Origin: a phage | Strand: one strand, 5' to 3' | Length of the DNA: 64,000 nucleotides | Sequence record: NC_102531.1 | Shown: in pieces, positions 30,885-41,140 of the stretch | How positions within the stretch are numbered: the stretch's first letter is position 1 | How the letters are laid out: each line of letters begins with the position of its first letter | Program-made: the position numbers and the translations under genes | The notes under the pieces: model-generated | Seen by the model: the letters and a program-made list of their open reading frames with translations, nothing else | The model's database searches: none | What the model was told of the DNA's origin: nothing

Positions 30885-32867
30885 TTATTTGATGTTATTC
30901 TTTGTATCGATCAGTTCACGGTATTCAATCATAGCAGGAGTGTCCCAATATTTCAAGCCTACATGCTTCAAAAGTGGGTATTTCTTTTCCAATCTTGCAA
31001 TATAGGCCTTCCCGCATTTAACTCGGTTGGCGATTAAGATTTTGGCACGATGATTTAGCTCGCTGTGCTTCCACGCGGTGTTACCTTCCCACTTGTGGAA
31101 ATGTGGCCGATAATTTCCAAAATCTTGCATGGGAATAATTTTCCCTAATTGTCTATACAGGCTGTCATATGAAGTTTCATTTGCTGCGCGAGTCAGTAAG
31201 AATTTCCAGGCGTCCTCTTTCAACAAATGTTCCACATTCTTCTCTGTAACATACTGGCAATCAGGATCAGTCCAAAGCAGACGAGATTCTGATACCAGGT
31301 ACAGATCTTCCCCTTCAGGAATCTGGAGTGCCGCACGCACACGGTCATAATTTTGCTGGTAGATGTTACTCATCTGTCCCAGCCAGCAGCTTCCCCGTTG
31401 GATATCTCCCTCATAAGGGATGCAATGCTTAATCTTCTTGAACTCTGCCTTCGTGAGGCGCTCACGATGGAAGTAGCCATCCTCTCTAAGCTTCTTAACC
31501 CAGTAACCCGGCTCGTAACGAGTTTTGGTTTCACCTTTCTTCGAAGGTCGGCGTGGAAGCTCAGATAATAATTTTACCGTATCTGCAAAGAACGGGTGGT
31601 GTGCCGCCTCTTTAAACTCTTTCACCAGATCCGTGTTCCGACAATAGAAAACGTTGCGTCCGGTGATCTCGCTTAAGTAGTTACACTTATTCCGGTTATA
31701 TTTGCCGTCTCCGTCGTTAAATACTAAATAGACTCCCCGTAGGAATTCTACCTTTCCGTAGCAGGAGTAGCCTATGCGGCCTTTATTTAAGCCGCCAGCG
31801 AAGATCTCACAATCTCCCAAACTTCCTAGTCCTGTCTCTTCCCATCGGTCCCACATAAAATTCTTACCGAAGATGTGCCCGAACACTCCACTGTTCTTCA
31901 TCATCTCGCGTGCTTCTGAGGATGTTTTTGCTGTCTCCAATTCCGCAACAACTTCTGCCCCACGAAGACGGATACCTTCTTTGACAAAAGCCTCCAGACG
32001 CTCTTGGAATCCACCATCGTCGTGCCCCTCTATGGTCCATTCGCGCCCAGGATTAATATTGCAATCCCCGATAGGGATCTCTACACAGATTGCAGGGTAG
32101 TCTGTCAATGTTTCCAGAAACTTAGAGCGGTAAGGTTGGTGTCCCATCACCACACGGCTCTCATCAGAGCTGGTATAACCTTTCAGGATGGTCATTTTCC
32201 AACCATCTTTCTCGTAGCGATACTGCGCCTCAACCTTGTCACCTTCCAGCATCTTACTGGTCATAGGGTCGGTAACGGTAAACGGAAACTTTGCATAGCG
32301 TAGGCATGACGCAATAGCAGTGCGATATTTCAGAACATGCTCTTTCTTAACATGGAACTGAACTTTTACCCCGTTGTGCTCTTCAGTCTTCCGCTCGCGG
32401 ATCTTGGTAACGTTTGGGATACCCTGATCCAAGAACAACAGATATGTGCTTTCAACACCGTTGTGCACACTGATCACATCGAAAGTGTCCACCATGCTGA
32501 ACGGGGCCTTTGAACCTACACCTTTATTACCTACCAGAGCGTTGCTGTTGCGCTTGGTTGACTCCCCGAGGTTCATGAAAGTGTTGCGGACCATCTCTTC
32601 CGACATGCCCAATCCAACGTCCTGCACAAAGAAGTATGGTTCAAGGTCTGTAGGAGAGTGAATGATGATCGGTACATCACCCCGTCCAGACTCAACATGG
32701 GAGTCCACAGCATTGAAGATTGGTTCACGGCAGCTTGCCAGCACCTTATCTTCGTAAATCCCTTTAATGATTAGCCCAAAAGTCTCTTTGTTCAGAGAAA
32801 TTGAGCCCCTGGTGACCTCCATATTTCCGGTTAGTACTGCTTTAGTTTCATTACTGTTTACAATCAT
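30885..32867 (-). CDS. GHKL-family ATPase domain protein (660 aa), rIIA-like candidate
   Basis: Bergerat-fold motifs: N-box EPIFNAVDS, G1 VQDVGLGMS, G2 GNKGVGSKAPF; the long C-terminal region is unassigned. Confidence 0.6.
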   Translation of the reverse strand: MIVNSNETKAVLTGNMEVTRGSISLNKETFGLIIKGIYEDKVLASCREPIFNAVDSHVESGRGDVPIIIHSPTDLEPYFFVQDVGLGMSEEMVRNTFMNLGESTKRNSNALVGNKGVGSKAPFSMVDTFDVISVHNGVESTYLLFLDQGIPNVTKIRERKTEEHNGVKVQFHVKKEHVLKYRTAIASCLRYAKFPFTVTDPMTSKMLEGDKVEAQYRYEKDGWKMTILKGYTSSDESRVVMGHQPYRSKFLETLTDYPAICVEIPIGDCNINPGREWTIEGHDDGGFQERLEAFVKEGIRLRGAEVVAELETAKTSSEAREMMKNSGVFGHIFGKNFMWDRWEETGLGSLGDCEIFAGGLNKGRIGYSCYGKVEFLRGVYLVFNDGDGKYNRNKCNYLSEITGRNVFYCRNTDLVKEFKEAAHHPFFADTVKLLSELPRRPSKKGETKTRYEPGYWVKKLREDGYFHRERLTKAEFKKIKHCIPYEGDIQRGSCWLGQMSNIYQQNYDRVRAALQIPEGEDLYLVSESRLLWTDPDCQYVTEKNVEHLLKEDAWKFLLTRAANETSYDSLYRQLGKIIPMQDFGNYRPHFHKWEGNTAWKHSELNHRAKILIANRVKCGKAYIARLEKKYPLLKHVGLKYWDTPAMIEYRELIDTKNNIK

Positions 32868-33364
32868 TTATTGCGCTCCTTGTAGTAGATATGACTCCCG
32901 AATTGAGCTGTCCTCTGCATCTTTTTTGCCCATTTCGGTCGTACTTTGGTTGTATGGTAGTGTGTTGCTCCACCTGTTATGTCCATAGCCATGTATGCAA
33001 CATGGTTGTTATTATAGACCTTTAGAAGCATCTTTGCAAGACTTTTAGCGTGATCCCATGAATCTTTTTCTGTCACCTTAAAAGTTTTGCCGTGGTTTGT
33101 CCACGAAAACTGGTTAGGTTGGTAGACAATCTTTCTTATAGTGTCTGGGTATTTGGGGTGAGATTTCCTGTTTAGTGTGGCAAACCCTGATGCCAGCATA
33201 CCCATCGTGCCATCCCCTCTAGCCTCCCTGTAGATATTGCATGCCAGAATGTTTTCCTTAGTATCTGAGGGCTTGCAAGTATGATATACTTTTTGTTTTG
33301 GTGCTGCAACAACAGGCAGCGATAAAAGTGCGCTCAAAATAATAGCAAAGATCTTAATTTTCAC
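32864..33364 (-). CDS. Secreted cell-wall hydrolase, SleB/CwlJ-like (candidate endolysin)
   Basis: Signal peptide MKIKIFAIILSALLSLPVVA; NIYREARG...QPNQFSW motif; GTG start; ATGA overlap with the GHKL gene. Confidence 0.6.
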   Translation of the reverse strand: MKIKIFAIILSALLSLPVVAAPKQKVYHTCKPSDTKENILACNIYREARGDGTMGMLASGFATLNRKSHPKYPDTIRKIVYQPNQFSWTNHGKTFKVTEKDSWDHAKSLAKMLLKVYNNNHVAYMAMDITGGATHYHTTKVRPKWAKKMQRTAQFGSHIYYKERNK

Positions 33365-33412: not shown

Positions 33413-33841
33413 TTAATCGTAGTGTGCCAAAATCTCTCCATCGTTGCAAGTTCCCTCTACAAAGTTATGAAGATTCATGCACTCATCTTGATAGAAGAAT
33501 TTACCGCTTTTCAGCCGTAGGCCAAACAACTCCGCATCTCCACGATGGCAAGCCTCTACAAGTTCATAGATTTCATACGGCAACTCTCCGTCGTCATGGA
33601 AGAATCCAGCCTTATCGTTGACATAAATGAAGAAATAATCACTGCTATCGCAAGCATCCAATATTTTAAACCAGATTTCATCTACATCTTTTTCTCGGAT
33701 ATCGATCACGCAAGTGGAGCTGCATTCGTACTCCTTCTCCGGCTCCTCGGTCAATACCACCAGGTAGTTTCCCCGCTTACCTACTTTAGCCATACAACCC
33801 CCCTTAAGCTTTAGCCAAAATGGCGCTAAACTCTTCACCAA
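33413..33841 (-). CDS. Hypothetical Cys-containing protein (142 aa)
   Basis: ORF. Confidence 0.45.
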   Translation of the reverse strand: MVKSLAPFWLKLKGGCMAKVGKRGNYLVVLTEEPEKEYECSSTCVIDIREKDVDEIWFKILDACDSSDYFFIYVNDKAGFFHDDGELPYEIYELVEACHRGDAELFGLRLKSGKFFYQDECMNLHNFVEGTCNDGEILAHYD

Positions 33842-34988
33842 ACTCTTTTACAATCTTCATCAGGTTTGGGTATGCTTTGATCAGCTGAGCAACAATCTTG
33901 TCACGCCCTTTACCGATAAGCAAGGCATTTCCTAAGGCATTAGGTTTCATCATCGCCATAAAGACTGAGAATACAAAATCTCGGTTCTCGTCCTTGAAGT
34001 TTTCCCAAAGGAAATCGAGGAAGTTTGCCACGCAGCTGACAAGATCTTCGTCTGAGATACTTGCATTTTCCATCATATTACGAATAGCGATACAACCTTC
34101 AGATCCAAGAATCCACAAAATGTCTGGCTGCTTAGGACCTACGTATTCTTTGCAGCCACCTGCCATAATCCGACCGATTTCCGGTAAATTGCGTTTCTTG
34201 GTGTGGTATGTCCAGATCTCTACCGCTGCAGTGTGACCAATAGCACCTTGCAGAAGAATACGGGACATAGCGTCAGAAATAATACCGCTGTCAAAATCGT
34301 GCAAGATGTCAGATGCAGCAACCCAAGATCGTGGTGTGGCAAAAGATGGACAATTAATCTCAGCCATAGCCTCATAATTATCAATAGCTGATGGAACTCT
34401 TTTCAGATACCCAATTACAGAGGAGTGAACCCCGTTGAGGAATGCGTAGTCCTCAATAAACACCTCTGCATTGCTTGTAACCTCTACAATGATAAAGCGG
34501 TTAGCCAGAGGGGCTTCGAGCGCCGAAAGAACCGCACCATCTGTAGAACGGTTACCCGCAGCCACAAAAACAGAACCCTTAGGGAATGCATAGGTGCCGC
34601 ACTTGTGGTCAAGCATAATTTGCATTGCAACCTTTTGCAGGTAGTTATCTGCATGAGTGAGCTCATCCAGAAAGATAATTCCGCTCCAGTCAGGATCCGC
34701 AGGCCAAAATTCTGGAATTGCAAACACTGTACGTGTAGTTCCATCCGCTTCTACAGGGATAGGTAGCCCAGATAAGTCGGCAGGATCTTTATCTGACAGT
34801 CGCACGTCAACAAGGTTGTCATCTCGCTCACCGAACATATTATCAGCGATCTGCTTCATCACCTGGCTTTTACCCACACCCATTGGTCCCAAAATTAGGA
34901 CAGATCGGCTATGACGTTGGGCAAACTGAATAATAGCTGGCAACTCACGGACAGTGATTTGACCACTTTCGAATACGTTTCTTGACAT
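33804..34988 (-). CDS. AAA+ ATPase, MoxR/CbbQ/CobS-like
   Basis: Walker A GPMGVGKS, Walker B IIFLDELTHA, AAA_5-like layout. Confidence 0.7.
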   Translation of the reverse strand: MSRNVFESGQITVRELPAIIQFAQRHSRSVLILGPMGVGKSQVMKQIADNMFGERDDNLVDVRLSDKDPADLSGLPIPVEADGTTRTVFAIPEFWPADPDWSGIIFLDELTHADNYLQKVAMQIMLDHKCGTYAFPKGSVFVAAGNRSTDGAVLSALEAPLANRFIIVEVTSNAEVFIEDYAFLNGVHSSVIGYLKRVPSAIDNYEAMAEINCPSFATPRSWVAASDILHDFDSGIISDAMSRILLQGAIGHTAAVEIWTYHTKKRNLPEIGRIMAGGCKEYVGPKQPDILWILGSEGCIAIRNMMENASISDEDLVSCVANFLDFLWENFKDENRDFVFSVFMAMMKPNALGNALLIGKGRDKIVAQLIKAYPNLMKIVKEFGEEFSAILAKA

Positions 34989-35257
34989 TAGTAAAAGTCC
35001 TCTACTTGTGTGTAAGTGTTTTCAAAGTTTTCCAAAACAGATATCACATCGAATCTGTCAATATCATACGTGACTCTCCAGTTGTACGCAACCCTTTCTG
35101 CTGTTGCCTCTTCTGGCGCTAGTCGTCTGCTGGCATAAAAGAGTGTTGGAGTACACTTTCTTGCTTGCCCTCTAACTTTCCCATAATAATATCTGTGAAT
35201 ATCTTTGTCAAAATTTAACTCTTTTTCTGCACGAAGTTCATATTGCTGGTATAACAT
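34988..35257 (-). CDS. Hypothetical protein (89 aa)
   Basis: ORF. Confidence 0.45.
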   Translation of the reverse strand: MLYQQYELRAEKELNFDKDIHRYYYGKVRGQARKCTPTLFYASRRLAPEEATAERVAYNWRVTYDIDRFDVISVLENFENTYTQVEDFY

Positions 35258-35301
35258 CTCTACTACTCCTTAAGCAGCATCCTTGCCGCCATTCCTGCCC
35301 A

Positions 35302-35682
35302 CTAAAATGCAGTCCGAATCCAGACAAGGTTCTTATCTGCCCAATCATAGAGGCAAGTCATTGCACTATTGAATTGCTCACACGGAGGATAATCTTCTTC
35401 CATCTGGCGCATAGCAGAGCCTTGTGGGTAAAGCTCCCGTGCTGCAAACCACGCATCGTAGTCATCCACGGTATCGAAGTAGTATACAACATCCTCCAAC
35501 TCAGGATCGAACTTTGAACTATCAGGATCCAGTTGTTCAGGGAACTTGGAGCGTAACTTGCCAGCCACAATACTTGCCAACTCGCTAACATGCTTATTGT
35601 CCCACTCCACTAGCTTCCCGTCTTCAGTGATGCGTCCTAACCACTGATCATGAAGGTCAACTGTTGTCTTCCACTGAGCCAT
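35302..35682 (-). CDS. Hypothetical protein (126 aa)
   Basis: ORF. Confidence 0.45.
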   Translation of the reverse strand: MAQWKTTVDLHDQWLGRITEDGKLVEWDNKHVSELASIVAGKLRSKFPEQLDPDSSKFDPELEDVVYYFDTVDDYDAWFAARELYPQGSAMRQMEEDYPPCEQFNSAMTCLYDWADKNLVWIRTAF

Positions 35683-35684
35683 TA

Positions 35685-35942
35685 TCAGTCCACCTCTTCT
35701 TCTCGTTGTAGTTCAAGATACCCGTAGGTCTGGACATCTTGAAGGGTGTGGAACTCCCCCTCTGCCGCTAAGGCACGAACAACTTGGCACAAAACCTTAT
35801 GAGGAACTTCATCCAAACCTAGATTCAGTGCAGGAAACACCTTATCTAAGTCAACAAAATAAACGAACTGTAGCTCACCAGCTTCAAAAGGTGTATCTTC
35901 AATAAACATCTTCTCGGCATTAGTCAAGATCTGCACTTTCAT
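35685..35942 (-). CDS. Hypothetical protein (85 aa)
   Basis: ORF. Confidence 0.45.
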   Translation of the reverse strand: MKVQILTNAEKMFIEDTPFEAGELQFVYFVDLDKVFPALNLGLDEVPHKVLCQVVRALAAEGEFHTLQDVQTYGYLELQREEEVD

Positions 35943-36298
35943 TATTCTACCTCCTCTTCTTTTTCTTCGGCATTAGTTTCATGGCTACTCCACTCGGGAG
36001 TTTCTACCTCGACAGTAAACTCACGCACTACACGGTAATTGCCCATGAAGCGCTCTACTTCGTCAAGGCTTATGGAGAGGCCATTGGCAACCAGGTCTGC
36101 AGCACCCTCTTCTACCAGGTAGTCCAGATTGGCTTCCAGAGCCTCAGGTTCAAACCCTGTCAATGCAATCAGATAACCTTCCCCTTCATCAGGGAGGACA
36201 ATACAGCCCAATTGATTTTCTTTAAAAAGGCAGTGACCATCATTATTGATTGGGTGTTCATTGCAGTAAATAGCTGCACGATAAGTAACTTTAGACAT
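35942..36298 (-). CDS. Hypothetical protein (118 aa) beginning MSKVTYRA inside the 29-bp inverted repeat
   Basis: ATG at 36298 preceded by AAGGAGA; first 24 coding nt identical to 38142..38165 on the other strand. Confidence 0.45.
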   Translation of the reverse strand: MSKVTYRAAIYCNEHPINNDGHCLFKENQLGCIVLPDEGEGYLIALTGFEPEALEANLDYLVEEGAADLVANGLSISLDEVERFMGNYRVVREFTVEVETPEWSSHETNAEEKEEEVE

Positions 36299-36303
36299 CG
36301 GTA
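36275..36303. repeat. 29-bp perfect inverted repeat, left copy
   Basis: Exact reverse complement of 38137..38165; flanking bases differ on both sides. Confidence 0.85.
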
Positions 36304-36311
36304 AGGTCTCC

Positions 36312-36590
36312 TTAGGCAATTGTCATTTTACATTCTTGAAATTTTAACACAAGACGGTGATTGTGTCTAGTGTCTAAAAAGATTTTTTCAACCATCAGGC
36401 ACACGGTATAACCGTCCATCTTGTTGACAACAAAATCTCCAGGATGAGGGAGGATGTCTCCCGGATTGGGGAAACATAGTCCACTCAGAAAGGCATCGTC
36501 AGTGGTGGACTTAATAGATTTCCACACACTGTCTGCCTGAACATGTTCGCCGACGTAATATACATTACCACATGCCTTCATCATAGTCAA
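36312..36590 (-). CDS. Hypothetical protein (92 aa)
   Basis: ORF. Confidence 0.45.
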   Translation of the reverse strand: MTMMKACGNVYYVGEHVQADSVWKSIKSTTDDAFLSGLCFPNPGDILPHPGDFVVNKMDGYTVCLMVEKIFLDTRHNHRLVLKFQECKMTIA

Positions 36591-37486
36591 ACCCTCGCAT
36601 AAATTAAACTTGTATCAGTATACTTCTTTAATGGGTAAATATCCTGTCCATAGATGCAATCATTAAACACCTCATCTACCCAAAGGCTACACTTATATCC
36701 CATCATTTCTAAAACACCCATCTCTTCTTCGGTAAACTTATCACCGCTCTTGCAAGATGTCAATACCTCATTCTGAACTCTTGCTACCTCGAAGCGGTTA
36801 TTGGCAATATCGCTATTGGCGATCAAATACTCACCTAGAGGGTGTGCGGCATTAAAGATGCACAGTGGACGGCTGACGTAATAGTCTCCGGGTGTATAAA
36901 AATTGTTGAGGTCTTTCACTAGAACATTCTTATCAGTCACTTCATTTATAACATCATGCATATCGCACATCTTTATATGTTTGAGGATTCCATCCCCCAT
37001 CACAAAATAAAAACTTGCTGAGACACTTTCGGCATAGATCTTACTAGATCCGTTGTAGTTGTATTTTACTCGGATGCTAACGGGGGTTTTTCCTGTCGCG
37101 TTAGCCATCATCCAAAGAAATGGCAGCTCATACTTCTCCTCTGAGGAAACAAAAGGTGAGGTAGCCAGAGATCGAAAACCTCCAGAGAAGTTGAAAGTTA
37201 CAGAACCGCTCCGGCGGTATGATACCGCGTATTCTACTTTTATATCGACGTACCCATTGGAATAGGTGTGTCCTTCATTATCTAAATATGTCCACTTATC
37301 AGACCCAGATACCAATCTACGCTCAATAACCTTCATCACTACAGGAATTAGTGGGTTGGTACAAACCGCTTTTGAAGTAGCTTTATCATCTAAAGCCTCG
37401 TAAATTGCAGAAAGGATGTCCCCAGCTGAAAGATTGGTTGTTATGTCCTGTTTCCACCGCGTACTAAAACTGTTAAGATTTGCCAT
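36587..37486 (-). CDS. Hypothetical protein (299 aa)
   Basis: ORF; first gene of the leftward block. Confidence 0.5.
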   Translation of the reverse strand: MANLNSFSTRWKQDITTNLSAGDILSAIYEALDDKATSKAVCTNPLIPVVMKVIERRLVSGSDKWTYLDNEGHTYSNGYVDIKVEYAVSYRRSGSVTFNFSGGFRSLATSPFVSSEEKYELPFLWMMANATGKTPVSIRVKYNYNGSSKIYAESVSASFYFVMGDGILKHIKMCDMHDVINEVTDKNVLVKDLNNFYTPGDYYVSRPLCIFNAAHPLGEYLIANSDIANNRFEVARVQNEVLTSCKSGDKFTEEEMGVLEMMGYKCSLWVDEVFNDCIYGQDIYPLKKYTDTSLIYARV

Positions 37487-37526
37487 AAGTAAGTGCTCCT
37501 ATGTTAGTTTTCTTTCGAATGGGTGC

Positions 37527-37555
37527 ACTATATTGTGGAGTTAGAGTAAAGTCAA
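37527..37555 (-). promoter_or_regulatory. Sigma70-like promoter in the divergent region (-35 TTGACT, 17-nt spacer, -10 TATAGT)
   Basis: Hexamers and spacing read directly. Confidence 0.45.
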
Positions 37556-37565
37556 CACGTTTTTG

Positions 37566-38606
37566 ATGTTGACATCTGTTGAGACAATTGATACGATTTC
37601 TTCACTTACAGAGCACGAGAGACGACTCATGAATCTTGAAAAATATTATACACCAGAAGAGTTAGAGCGCTTGCTCAAAAAATATAGACGCAAACAGAAT
37701 AACGCACGGAAACGAGATATAGAGTTCGACCTGTCATGGGAAGAATACCTCCTATTTGGTAAAAAACTTTTAGGAGATGGAGTATGCGACTATACCCTTA
37801 TACCTTTTGACATGCACACAGATGAAAACGGGCTGGGAAATCCTTTCTACCCATCTCTGGAGCGGATAGATGATGAAGGTCCTTATGCGGTTGATAACTG
37901 TTGTGTGGTGGGATTGAGATGCAACTCTCTAAAGGACTGTCTGGTAGATAAAAAGACTGCAGTCTTGATTAAAGACGAAACTGATCGAAAAATTGTCCAG
38001 CAGATGATGCTCCACCTGAGCGAAGAGCGTATGGAGAAATTGAAAGGTGATTATACTTTTGAAGATTTCATCTTGCAATATGGAACGGAAGAGGATAAAC
38101 TAGCACTCTTTGACGAAGAAGAGGAGGAAGATATGCTACCGATGTCTAAAGTTACTTATCGTGCACCCAAGAAGCACATTTCCGACATTGTAAACGAGCC
38201 TATCACAGAAGAGATTGAAGAAATGACGCAACAGGTGCATGAAGAGGAAAAAGAGACTCAGGAGGTCGAAGAGGAGCTTACAGAAGAGGTTCCTGCACTA
38301 CCTGATGATGTTGAGATTGCCAAAGCTTACACTTTCTATTGTCAAACGTTCTACGATGTAGGTATGAAAGTTGATCTGTCGTTCAGCCAATTTAAGAGTT
38401 CGTATATTCGCAAATGCTGTGCTTTAACTGGTGAACGTCTTGAAGCTGGACTTAAACCTCTGTTGGTGACCGACTGGAATAAAGGTTTCACTAAAGGAAA
38501 CTTTATGGTAGTATCTCCAATTATGGAGAAAGCTATGACAGATCTTATGAAGACCACCCGCATGACAATGACCGAGTTGGCAGGTATTTTCAAACACGTT
38601 AAATAA
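37566..38606 (+). CDS. Hypothetical protein (346 aa) with internal MSKVTYRA copy at residue 193 and an acidic central linker
   Basis: First gene of the plus-strand island; contains the right copy of the 29-bp inverted repeat in frame. Confidence 0.5.
   Translation: MLTSVETIDTISSLTEHERRLMNLEKYYTPEELERLLKKYRRKQNNARKRDIEFDLSWEEYLLFGKKLLGDGVCDYTLIPFDMHTDENGLGNPFYPSLERIDDEGPYAVDNCCVVGLRCNSLKDCLVDKKTAVLIKDETDRKIVQQMMLHLSEERMEKLKGDYTFEDFILQYGTEEDKLALFDEEEEEDMLPMSKVTYRAPKKHISDIVNEPITEEIEEMTQQVHEEEKETQEVEEELTEEVPALPDDVEIAKAYTFYCQTFYDVGMKVDLSFSQFKSSYIRKCCALTGERLEAGLKPLLVTDWNKGFTKGNFMVVSPIMEKAMTDLMKTTRMTMTELAGIFKHVK
38137..38165. repeat. 29-bp perfect inverted repeat, right copy
   Basis: taccgatgtctaaagttacttatcgtgca, reverse-complementary to 36275..36303. 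Confidence 0.85.
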
Positions 38607-38639
38607 TAACAGGGGCCAATGGCCCCTTCTGGAGTTTTA

Positions 38640-40100
38640 ATGGATAGCAGAAGTTCAGAAATCATTGCCTCGCAGAAAGATGATGCCCTGAGAATGTTGC
38701 AGGCTGCACGTATGTATCTCCTTGAAAAGCTGCCGTTCTATGGCACACTACTGTCAGGGTTGCAGTTCGTAGAAAACCACACATGGTGCTCCACCATGGC
38801 AACCGACCATAAACGCATCTATTACAGTCCTGAGTTCATTATGGGATTGGCTGATGAACGCAAGGCTATTCTTAAGGCTTCTCTAACTGACGAGCAGTTT
38901 GAGATGGCTGAAGTTTTCTATTCCCCAAAATCTGTGAAAGAGGTGGCCTTCCTTCTGTCACATGAGGTGGGGCATATTATCTGTGATCACCTAGTCCGTG
39001 GTAAAAGCTTTGAGCCGGAACTGTTCAATATTGCTTGTGATCACGTTATCAACACAGGCCTTGTGGTTGACTTTAGCAAACCTCCTTGTGTTTTCTTCCC
39101 GAAGGGGAAAAGCACTACGTTCGTGAAAGGTAAGCCTTTTGGCTTCTTAGCCAGCTGCTACTGCGACATGAAGTTTCATGGATGGATTGCTGAGAACGTT
39201 TATGCAGTTCTTGATAAGCAAAGAGATCAGAATAACGGTAAAAGTAAGAACGGTAAAGGTGAGAACTCTCAAAGTGATAAGCGACAAACCGATGATCACA
39301 TGAGTGGGAACGGTGGCACCAATGATAATCTTGGAAAGGCTATGGGGTATGATCAGCCACAACCTGTAATCAGCCAATCTGATAAAGATCAGGCCATGCA
39401 GGACTCTGGTGATATGCTGGAGGCAGCAATGCAAGCGTCCGGAGGCCGTTGCCCTGAGGCGGTGCGTGAGTTTGTCAAGAACAGAGGTAAACCTGTAATC
39501 AACTATATAGACATCATTAAGCAACGCATGTTGTCTAAAAGAAAGGCCGAACTGACCTACAGAAAACCTGGTCGCCGATCTGGGTCTTTGACCAGCACAA
39601 TGCGAAAAGTTGGGGCTATAAACAAGAACCAGCACGTTATTGTTCCTGGTCGTAATCCGGAAAACACTATAGATATTGTGGTGGCTTTAGACGTTTCTGG
39701 CTCGATCTCTCAAAGAACTTTAAAGAAAATGTTCAATGAAATCACCGGATTGTGCAATCTGTATAAAGAGTTTAAGGTTACAATGTTCTGTTGGTCAACT
39801 GAGGTTGGAGAGGTTAAAGTATACACTCGCGGCAACATAGACGAGATGATCAACTATGAGGTCCACTCAACATGGGGCACAACAGCTGCTTGCGTGTTCG
39901 AGTATCTGGATGCCAACATACCTAATGCAAAAGATGTCATCGTCCTGACCGACCTATACTTTGAGCATAACTTTGAACAAAAGGTTGTTGACAACAAGTG
40001 GAAAAAGTACGATACTCTATGGGTCCTCACTGAGGGGTATAATAAAAATTATATCCCGAGCTTTGGGAAAACTGTGGAATTAATCGAGTACGCTAAGTAA
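38640..40100 (+). CDS. vWA-domain protein with N-terminal HExxH metallopeptidase-like motif (CobT-like partner of the MoxR ATPase)
   Basis: LSHEVGHIICDH (HExxH) and MIDAS-like VVALDVSGS; start placed at the ATG after GGAG rather than the ATG inside hairpin 38611..38627. Confidence 0.65.
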   Translation: MDSRSSEIIASQKDDALRMLQAARMYLLEKLPFYGTLLSGLQFVENHTWCSTMATDHKRIYYSPEFIMGLADERKAILKASLTDEQFEMAEVFYSPKSVKEVAFLLSHEVGHIICDHLVRGKSFEPELFNIACDHVINTGLVVDFSKPPCVFFPKGKSTTFVKGKPFGFLASCYCDMKFHGWIAENVYAVLDKQRDQNNGKSKNGKGENSQSDKRQTDDHMSGNGGTNDNLGKAMGYDQPQPVISQSDKDQAMQDSGDMLEAAMQASGGRCPEAVREFVKNRGKPVINYIDIIKQRMLSKRKAELTYRKPGRRSGSLTSTMRKVGAINKNQHVIVPGRNPENTIDIVVALDVSGSISQRTLKKMFNEITGLCNLYKEFKVTMFCWSTEVGEVKVYTRGNIDEMINYEVHSTWGTTAACVFEYLDANIPNAKDVIVLTDLYFEHNFEQKVVDNKWKKYDTLWVLTEGYNKNYIPSFGKTVELIEYAK

Positions 40101-40115
40101 GAGAGGAGGTTATTT

Positions 40116-40379
40116 ATGGCAACAGAGTTAAAATTTGCATCAAACCGTAAAACTAAGAAGTATCTGTCCTCAGTAGCTCCAGGCACTGTGGTGATGTTTG
40201 TTGATGAACTTGGGGATGTGAATACAGCACTTGTTGTAAAATCACATCCTGCAAACATATATGTTGGGGTATTTGACCTGTTCAGAAAGGTGTTTGTAGA
40301 ACTACCTCACAGTTTGGTTGTTACAGAAATGGATGCCTGCATAGAAATTCTTGGCGAAGTTATGGTGGAGGAACAATAA
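40116..40379 (+). CDS. Small paralogous protein 1 of 4 (87 aa)
   Basis: Shares the layout KF-x-S, G-x-VV, Cys or His core, V-TE(L/M)D, I-ILGE with the next three genes. Confidence 0.5.
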   Translation: MATELKFASNRKTKKYLSSVAPGTVVMFVDELGDVNTALVVKSHPANIYVGVFDLFRKVFVELPHSLVVTEMDACIEILGEVMVEEQ

Positions 40380-40642
40380 TGGCTACCAGCATTGTATTCA
40401 ATTCTAAGGTGAAGAACAAAAAGCGTGCAGACAGCTTTCCGTGTGGGACCGTGGTAAGTTGCGACGGAGACGGCATTCAAAACATAGTTATGATTGTCAA
40501 AACAGGAGAACATTGTGTGTGGGGGTTCGATTTAGAAAATAATGAGTTGTACGATCTGCCACCAAACATGAAAGTTACAGAGCTTGACACCAAAATTACC
40601 ATCCTTGGAGAGACAAGCTATTCAAAAGAAGGAGGAGAATAA
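40379..40642 (+). CDS. Small paralogous protein 2 of 4 (87 aa)
   Basis: Tandem paralog, TAATG-type junction. Confidence 0.5.
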   Translation: MATSIVFNSKVKNKKRADSFPCGTVVSCDGDGIQNIVMIVKTGEHCVWGFDLENNELYDLPPNMKVTELDTKITILGETSYSKEGGE

Positions 40643-40905
40643 TGACCACAAAAATCACTATCGCAGAACCGAAAGCTAACACTCAACCTATCGAAAAGTT
40701 TAAGTGCGGTGAGGTGGTAACATTCACACCAGATAATGAAGATGCTAAGATTTTCGCAATGGTCACAGCTGAGTGGATGTGTGACAACACCACACAGGTT
40801 CTGCGTTTTGACACCTATCTTACCGATGAAATCAGGAACGACAAGATTGTGACTGGTGTGGATACTGAGATTGTTTTCTACAAGAGCTTTTTAGAGGGTT
40901 TCTGA
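40642..40905 (+). CDS. Small paralogous protein 3 of 4 (87 aa)
   Basis: Tandem paralog. Confidence 0.5.
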   Translation: MTTKITIAEPKANTQPIEKFKCGEVVTFTPDNEDAKIFAMVTAEWMCDNTTQVLRFDTYLTDEIRNDKIVTGVDTEIVFYKSFLEGF

Positions 40906-40906
40906 T

Positions 40907-41140
40907 ATGGCAAAAATTCGTAAATTATCTAGTAATCAGGTTGTGAAAGACTTTGAATCTGGAGAGATTCTTTATGTTCGTGATGCAGATGACGAAGGTG
41001 AAGATCTCGTTATGTTGGTGGGGCACGCTGAGGACGGATGCATCCAAGCTGTTTTTCTTGAAACAGCTATGGTGCACTGGATAGAGCTGGACCTGAAAGC
41101 ACGAAAACCTAAAGCAGAAATCCTGATTTACGAAGATTAA
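40907..41140 (+). CDS. Small paralogous protein 4 of 4 (77 aa, most diverged)
   Basis: Similar length and motif order. Confidence 0.45.
   Translation: MAKIRKLSSNQVVKDFESGEILYVRDADDEGEDLVMLVGHAEDGCIQAVFLETAMVHWIELDLKARKPKAEILIYED

Follow-up and report, generated by a model that had tools for sequence, protein, structure and literature searches.

A putative MoxR-type ATPase and vWA-metallopeptidase pair of the N4 gp24/gp25 type, split across a divergent junction in an rV5-like coliphage

The phage DNA analysed here, a stretch of 64,000 nucleotides from sequence record NC_102531.1 (hereafter the window), carries a gene for a MoxR-type AAA+ ATPase on the minus strand (33804..34988) and a gene for a DUF2201-family protein, with an N-terminal HExxH domain and a vWA domain, on the plus strand (38640..40100). 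The start codons of the two genes are 3,651 bp apart on opposite strands. Does such a locus encode two partners, and if so, what kind of machine would they form? Both open reading frames (ORFs) are where the initial annotation, a reading of the DNA letters, had placed them, and its spacing of about 3.6 kb between opposite strands was accurate. Our comparison of related genomes indicates that the two genes are well supported as partners. We further consider it probable on balance that they make up one N4 gp24/gp25-type machine, an ATP-driven protease or remodeller, targeted by a metal-ion-dependent adhesion site (MIDAS), which would act before late gene expression. As to the source of the DNA, the 8-kb stretch around the pair shares 99.7% identity with Escherichia phage JLBYU08 and 99.6% with LL12, and it is matched by 121 rV5-like (Vequintavirus) records; judged by these matches, the window is from an rV5-like coliphage, a Vequintavirus.

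The product of 38640..40100 (486 amino acids, aa; rV5 gene 12; a homologue of N4 gp25) is laid out as an N-terminal putative zinc metallopeptidase domain, a disordered linker and a C-terminal vWA domain; the initial annotation had described it as a vWA protein with an N-terminal HExxH motif. Two Pfam families were matched in this order and above their cut-offs: PF13203 (DUF2201_N, E 5.7e-28, 98.7 bits against a cut-off of 23.2) and then PF09967 (DUF2201 VWA-like, E 7.1e-11, 42.7 bits against 26.4). As sequence matches, these are far beyond chance. Pfam words the first as a 'putative metallopeptidase domain' and the second as a 'VWA-like domain', and we take the DUF2201 family to be the COG3864-type 'metal-dependent peptidase with vWA domain'. 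When 26 diverse homologues were aligned, with identity down to about 20%, the residues expected of both predicted sites were invariant. They comprise H108, E109, H112 and H117 of HEVGHIICDH, the HExxH motif with an extra histidine (38961..38990, plus strand; HEVGH at 38961-38975), and likewise D134; in the vWA domain they comprise D351, S353 and S355 of the MIDAS sequence DVSGS (DxSxS; 39690..39704, plus strand), together with the other MIDAS residues T414 (39879-39881) and D438 (39951-39953). The disordered linker covers residues 201-228, and a conserved RPxRR stands at residues 309-313. A sequence search of the PDB gave no match for this protein. In its AlphaFold2 model (predicted local distance difference test, pLDDT, 81.8), the C-terminal domain matches vWA/integrin I domains and the NorD vWA domain, and neither the sequence nor the structure searches turned up a solved relative of the N-terminal domain. 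The longest form of the ORF begins at 38619, with an ATG that is part of a hairpin (38611-38627). For the ATG at 38640, which GenBank takes as the start, a GGAG ribosome-binding site is present 7 nucleotides (nt) upstream, so the limits of 38640-40100 in the initial annotation were right.

The second gene, 33804..34988, encodes a 394-aa protein (rV5 gene 4), homologous to N4 gp24 and matched by phrog_1297, 'ATPase', with E 5e-110. All five AAA+ motifs were found in it, and their key residues are invariant in an alignment of 65 homologues: G37, G39, K40 and S41 in the Walker A motif or P-loop (GPMGVGKS, 34866..34889, minus strand), L107, D108 and E109 in Walker B (FLDE, 34662..34673, minus strand), and N146 of sensor-1 (AAGNR), R164 of the arginine finger (ANRF) and R220 of sensor-2 (TPRS), which the alignment places within 34326..34562 (minus strand). 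Compared with the PDB by sequence, the protein shows P-loop-level similarity to Clp ATPases only. PF07726 (AAA_3) and PF07728 (AAA_5) are found in its relatives at E about 1e-44, which align with 31-36% identity across about 85% of the length, and PF20030 (bpMoxR) in some of them as well; a profile of its family has Midasin as the top match in the PDB (E 1e-11). The AlphaFold2 model (pLDDT 85.6) was searched with Foldseek, and the top matches were NorQ (9qh4-9qhg) and CbbQ (6l1q, 5c3c), with E from 2e-8 to 1e-7 and template modelling (TM) scores of 0.63-0.68 on the target. Both of these are termed MoxR ATPases by their depositors or authors, and NorQ-NorD complexes released in 2026 are among the closest structures. 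Two beta-hairpins are assigned in the model by DSSP, at residues 75-90 and about 129-134; in our reading of the model, they may be the helix-2 insert and the pre-sensor-1 hairpin. Because of the AAA_3/AAA_5 relatives, the Midasin profile match and the NorQ/CbbQ-like model, we accept the MoxR-type assignment made in the initial annotation, and place the predicted protein in a divergent branch of the MoxR/Midasin (AAA_5) group.

To follow the two genes through other genomes, loci were gathered around relatives of the vWA protein (a scan that used three narrower alignments) and, reciprocally, around relatives of the ATPase, and both genes were then located by tblastn. Among phage genome records, 624 contain the vWA gene and 812 the ATPase gene. 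Seen from the vWA side, every DUF2201 locus with enough upstream DNA has a related ATPase, with the exception of one rearranged contig; the other loci that have no ATPase end within about 725 bp upstream. Seen from the ATPase side, a vWA gene lies within 10 kb in 31 of 32 viral loci. The pair is adjacent in well over 100 related loci, commonly with the ATPase first and the vWA gene next on the same strand, and with some tens to hundreds of bases between them. Of 80 gammaproteobacterial loci, about 75 have an adjacent and co-directional pair (Sulfurivermis fontis is one example), and so do about 20 N4-like contigs and uncultured phages; in Certrevirus-like contigs the adjacent genes have gaps of 76-561 bp. 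Annotated examples are N4 gp24/gp25, phAPEC6 gp265c ('MoxR ATPase') with gp264c ('N4 gp25-like'), and Certrevirus PBES02. In LIT1 a small ORF, gp34, sits between gp33 and gp35. The gammaproteobacterial pairs are chromosomal, and occur mostly in sulfur oxidisers. Independent occurrence of the two genes in related phages was looked for and not found, and the proposal of the initial annotation that they are partners despite the split therefore stands: they co-occur, and in most other lineages they are neighbours.

By their families, the window proteins are of the N4 gp24/gp25 type (PF13203 and PF09967 with a MoxR-like ATPase), a branch of the MoxR/vWA systems. N4 gp24/gp25 and the MoxR/metallopeptidase-vWA pair of jumbo phages belong to the same families (the ATPase by tblastn, the partner by PF13203 and PF09967), have the same invariant HExxH and MIDAS residues, and stand in a similarly non-structural genomic context. 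The N4-like proteins are only about 20-30% identical to those of the window. The arrangement also differs: N4-like phages, jumbo phages and Certrevirus have the two genes as neighbours on one strand (apart from the small ORF between them in LIT1), whereas in the window they are on opposite strands, 3.65 kb apart, with an Srd-like gene before the vWA gene.

How did the pair come to be split? The split layout, in which the ATPase gene lies 3.5-5.3 kb upstream and on the other strand, was found in all rV5-clade loci and in distant relatives, over a range of vWA protein identity from 97% down to about 39%; in all of them the two genes are retained together. Certrevirus, with its adjacent pair, belongs to the same subfamily, the Vequintavirinae, and the split must thus have arisen within the Vequintavirinae. 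Read from these comparisons, it is an old and stable rearrangement and not a decoupling. The strand switch is the divergent intergenic junction at 37487..37628, identified from a consensus scan and the sequence. Back-to-back sigma-70-like promoters are predicted there by consensus, one for each strand: that of the minus strand at 37555..37527 and that of the plus strand, which has an extended -10 TG, at 37569..37597. In rV5, bidirectional promoters have been reported in the space between genes 10 and 11; the transcription units there are 10-1-238-164 and 11-26, and the late genes, 27-66, lie elsewhere (PMC3606486). The GC skew changes sign over about 38-44 kb of the window, which fits a short rightward block within leftward-transcribed DNA. 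The two genes lie 2-7 genes from the shared sigma-70-type promoter region. Since the two genes, numbers 4 (ATPase) and 12 (vWA), are both near one promoter region, they are plausibly co-timed, and a split of this kind is not unusual biology.

Between the junction and the vWA gene lies the Srd-like 'anti-sigma factor' gene (37629..38606, plus strand; rV5 gene 11; named from PHROG, GenBank and PMC3606486), which is given here as context. It directly precedes the vWA gene in every split-clade locus compared gene by gene, and the Certrevirus-like loci, in which the ATPase and vWA genes adjoin, gave no homologue of it. The gene also resembles endonuclease VII/HNH-type PHROGs. It may have a function connected with the module, or may simply be a marker of the rearranged block.

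These comparisons show how the layout of the locus arose. Ancestrally the ATPase gene came first and the vWA gene adjoined it on the same strand. A rearrangement around a bidirectional promoter, in the ancestor that Vequintavirus shares with its Seunavirus/Mydovirus-like relatives, then separated them: the ATPase gene was left in the leftward unit (rV5 genes 10 to 1), while the vWA gene, preceded by the Srd-like gene, was left in the rightward one (genes 11 to 26). Being near the shared sigma-70-type promoter region, both genes would still be made at the same pre-late time. The machine itself may be pictured in four steps: a hexameric ATPase ring would grip the vWA domain of its partner, the MIDAS site would dock onto an acidic residue of the target protein, ATP hydrolysis would twist or pull the vWA partner, and the HExxH domain would then cut the target, or become unmasked to cut it. 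We infer this mechanism and its timing by homology with NorQ/NorD, CbbQ/CbbO and Rea1, and from gene context. In the NorQ/NorD structures, a finger of the vWA domain is inside the ATPase pore and the partner is twisted in an ATP-driven manner, and this 'finger-in-pore' binding has been proposed to apply generally to MoxR/vWA couples (PMC9976466, PMC13036017).

The NorQ/NorD and CbbQ/CbbO couples, whose ATPases are those closest to our model, share the two-gene AAA+/MIDAS logic of the window pair. However, the window ATPase has about 120 extra C-terminal helical residues, identity is only 15-21%, the NorD vWA domain matches that of the window partner less well than other vWA domains do, NorD and CbbO are without the HExxH domain, and no cognate metalloenzyme is linked to the pair. 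Rea1/Midasin, the best PDB profile match of the ATPase family, combines an AAA_5-type ring with a MIDAS domain, but it is one giant chain, of eukaryotic origin, that contains six AAA modules as well as its MIDAS domain, and it lacks a peptidase. FtsH-type ATP-dependent zinc proteases offer an analogy of function only, an AAA+ motor with an HExxH zinc peptidase: they are one polypeptide of another AAA+ clade, with the M41 peptidase fold and no vWA domain, and no homology to them was detected.

We favour a protease or remodeller that would act before the late phase because the HExxH and MIDAS residues are intact, the genomic context is consistently non-structural and published templates are available. 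N4 gp24 and gp25 are middle transcripts, and are among the 14 core genes of N4-like phages (Chan et al., 2014; PMC4193335). The neighbours of the pair in other phages include dCTP deaminase, thymidylate synthase, 5'-3' exonuclease, helicase and DNA polymerase genes; in the window they are rIIA, the Srd-like gene and many small ORFs. This context points to a target needed in the early or middle, DNA-replication phase rather than in the maturation of capsid or tail. The suggestion in the initial annotation of a chaperone-protease module acting on a host or phage target appears reasonable, and is in line with a published prediction (PMC7824862).

Several results weigh against this view of the pair. 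The window ATPase is under the Pfam cut-off, scoring 16.7 bits against 22 for AAA_5 and with AAA_3 unlisted, and none of 31 rV5-supergroup ATPases reaches AAA_3 or AAA_5 at E <= 0.001, so its class depends on its relatives and its predicted fold. The identities of the two proteins to the window copies fall in parallel (Pearson r 0.98, Spearman rho 0.46, 101 identity pairs), but such co-divergence is expected for any co-inherited genes of one genome and is not independent evidence. The promoter scan returned 21 matches, against 16.5 expected in shuffles, and these are consensus matches only. Finally, the MoxR ATPase of phAPEC6 is recorded in virion preparations in the excerpt of its virion table (PMC7247149), which fits a role in virion assembly. 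Other sources were silent. In the literature search no link between rV5 and MoxR was found, and the papers in which 'DUF2201' appears are not, by their titles and abstracts, about its function; in the CRISPRi-ART paper, EdH4 and N4 serve only for knockdowns of capsid and rII genes, and it has nothing on the ATPase and vWA genes. PADLOC defence models gave P-loop-level matches only for the ATPase (E > 0.002) and none for the vWA protein, and NCBIfam gave nothing informative for the pair.

The phAPEC6 finding bears on the alternative that was published for jumbo phages, in which a MoxR-vWA chaperone assembles the capsid or tail and the peptidase processes structural proteins. Iyer et al. (2021; PMC7824862) proposed a virion role for the same architecture, citing the MoxR/vWA pair that Acidianus two-tailed virus needs for its tail development. 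That couple is also virus-encoded, but it is set apart by its description: it belongs to an archaeal virus, has no peptidase domain and serves extracellular tail development. In the phAPEC6 virion preparations, gp265c was detected by mass spectrometry with 6 peptides and 19% coverage, and this keeps the virion-maturation proposal alive. The partner, gp264c, is absent from the same excerpt of the table, which does include thymidylate synthase, so carry-over of non-structural proteins is likely there. Moreover, the genes lie outside the late and structural blocks in rV5 (late genes 27-66), in N4 (middle), in LIT1 (beside helicase and DNA polymerase) and in uncultured phages. This pre-late or replication-associated context argues against virion maturation, the only published functional proposal, and we regard it as rather unlikely for the window pair.

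Alternatively, the pair could be a chaperone that inserts a metal cofactor into a phage or host metalloenzyme, as NorQ/NorD, CbbQ/CbbO, CoxD/CoxE and the chelatases do, with the HExxH motif holding the metal. NorQ and CbbQ are the closest solved structures to the ATPase, metal insertion is the typical job of MoxR/vWA couples (PMC13036017), enzymes of nucleotide metabolism are frequent neighbours, and in Sulfurivermis a ferrochelatase gene lies two genes downstream of the pair. A consistently linked metalloenzyme gene is missing, however: among the 80 bacterial loci no third gene is common to all, the most frequent ones downstream being those for a 374-aa protein (35 loci) and for an HExxH-containing protein of about 500 aa (30 loci). 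The HExxH motif with its conserved downstream histidine and aspartate fits the family that the Pfam curators call a putative metallopeptidase, and the known partners NorD, CbbO and CobT are without an HExxH domain. We therefore consider metal insertion improbable. A thioredoxin gene is also found near the Sulfurivermis pair, besides that for ferrochelatase.

Could the genes have become functionally independent after the split, as two unrelated early genes that merely share their ancestry with a paired module? They do belong to different transcription units on opposite strands, and one contig has them separated by at least 35 kb. In this rV5-related metagenomic contig, IMGVR_UViG_3300045988_163358, both genes are kept, on the same contig strand; the block of Srd-like and vWA genes adjoins homologues of the window genes at 15-18 kb, and the ATPase gene is beside rIIA/rIIB. 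Either the rightward transcription unit has truly been relocated, or the assembly is chimeric. Against independence, both genes are kept in every related genome examined, the far-apart case included, the catalytic, MIDAS and ATPase residues are all intact, and both genes are near the same bidirectional promoter region, which leaves this explanation very improbable. As for a remnant of a CobS/CobT-type cobaltochelatase, such as occurs in some marine phages, we reject it as scarcely credible: the 'CobS/CobT-like' label of the initial annotation is a loose analogy to the general AAA+ plus vWA architecture that fails at family level, since no CobS/CobT-specific Pfam family at E <= 0.01 and no NCBIfam chelatase model was matched, and the PF13203 domain of the vWA partner is not part of CobT.

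Some other features of the surrounding DNA were also noted. A perfect and sharply bounded 29-nt inverted repeat flanks the junction (36275-36303 and 38137-38165). Its left arm spans the start codon and first 8 codons of a minus-strand gene, 35942-36298 (MSKVTYRA...), and its right arm is in frame within the Srd-like gene (...LPMSKVTYRAPKK...); inversion between the arms would exchange the C-terminal half of the Srd-like protein, in frame. An active invertible switch at this repeat was considered as the cause of the split and rejected: 118 GenBank relatives all lack the flipped configuration, and the repeat in its exact form is limited to very close relatives. The GC-rich hairpin mentioned above (GGGGCC-AAT-GGCCCC, 38611-38627) lies between the Srd-like and vWA genes and covers the in-frame ATG at 38619. 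Its minus strand was scored as terminator-like in a scan. A partial terminator is one possibility; another is an element for RNA processing or stability, placed before the vWA gene. Directly after the vWA gene, at 40116-41140 on the plus strand, follow four small tandem genes (87, 87, 87 and 77 aa). They are divergent paralogues with 15-38% mutual identity, a common G at position 23 and a similar C-terminal pattern. Directly downstream of the ATPase unit, 30885-33364 on the minus strand holds an rIIA homologue (with an HATPase_c_3 domain) and a SleB-type cell-wall hydrolase; in N4, rIIA/rIIB are likewise a few kb away from gp24/gp25.

Some labels in public records of these genes also deserve comment. 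The vWA protein is matched by phrog_1314 (E 6e-123), which is labelled 'HNH endonuclease', and the same product name is given in RefSeq to N4 gp25, LIT1 gp35 and PBES02 ADU18_0234, proteins that in domain content are PF13203 plus PF09967; the label looks like a propagated mis-annotation. An 89-aa ORF at 34988-35257 on the minus strand, which overlaps the start codon of the ATPase gene, is assigned to phrog_13164 'ATPase' and called 'ATPase' in several records. It has no P-loop and no Pfam match, and the label was probably carried over from its neighbour. Sixteen GenBank records of a 'Campylobacter phage', with Campylobacter jejuni given as host (MG065635, MG065644, MG065647, MG065658, MG065672 and others), are about 99% identical to rV5-like coliphages in this region, and their host assignment looks doubtful.

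In kind the pair is already known: GenBank records name its genes ('MoxR ATPase' for the one, 'putative metallopeptidase' or 'VWA-like domain containing protein' for the other), and Iyer et al. (2021; PMC7824862) have described it for group 2.2 jumbo phages. The conserved divergent layout and its origin within the Vequintavirinae are a small addition to these facts. The pair recurs in N4-like phages (among the 14 core genes; PMC4193335), rV5-like phages, Certrevirus, jumbo phages and many bacterial chromosomes, and it appears to outlast complete physical unlinking. The rV5-like phages (EdH4, the BASEL Vequintaviruses) are genetically tractable, as is N4. It is tempting to speculate that the module is a two-part, ATP-driven and MIDAS-targeted protease that destroys or remodels one host protein before late expression, for example a defence, stress-response or replication factor. 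We hold this specific proposal only tentatively, as a possibility with the chances against it. If true, it would explain the core status of the pair in N4-like phages and its retention in rV5-like and jumbo phages even when unlinked, and the pair would represent a new class of phage machine, serving host takeover or counter-defence, that has a counterpart on bacterial chromosomes.

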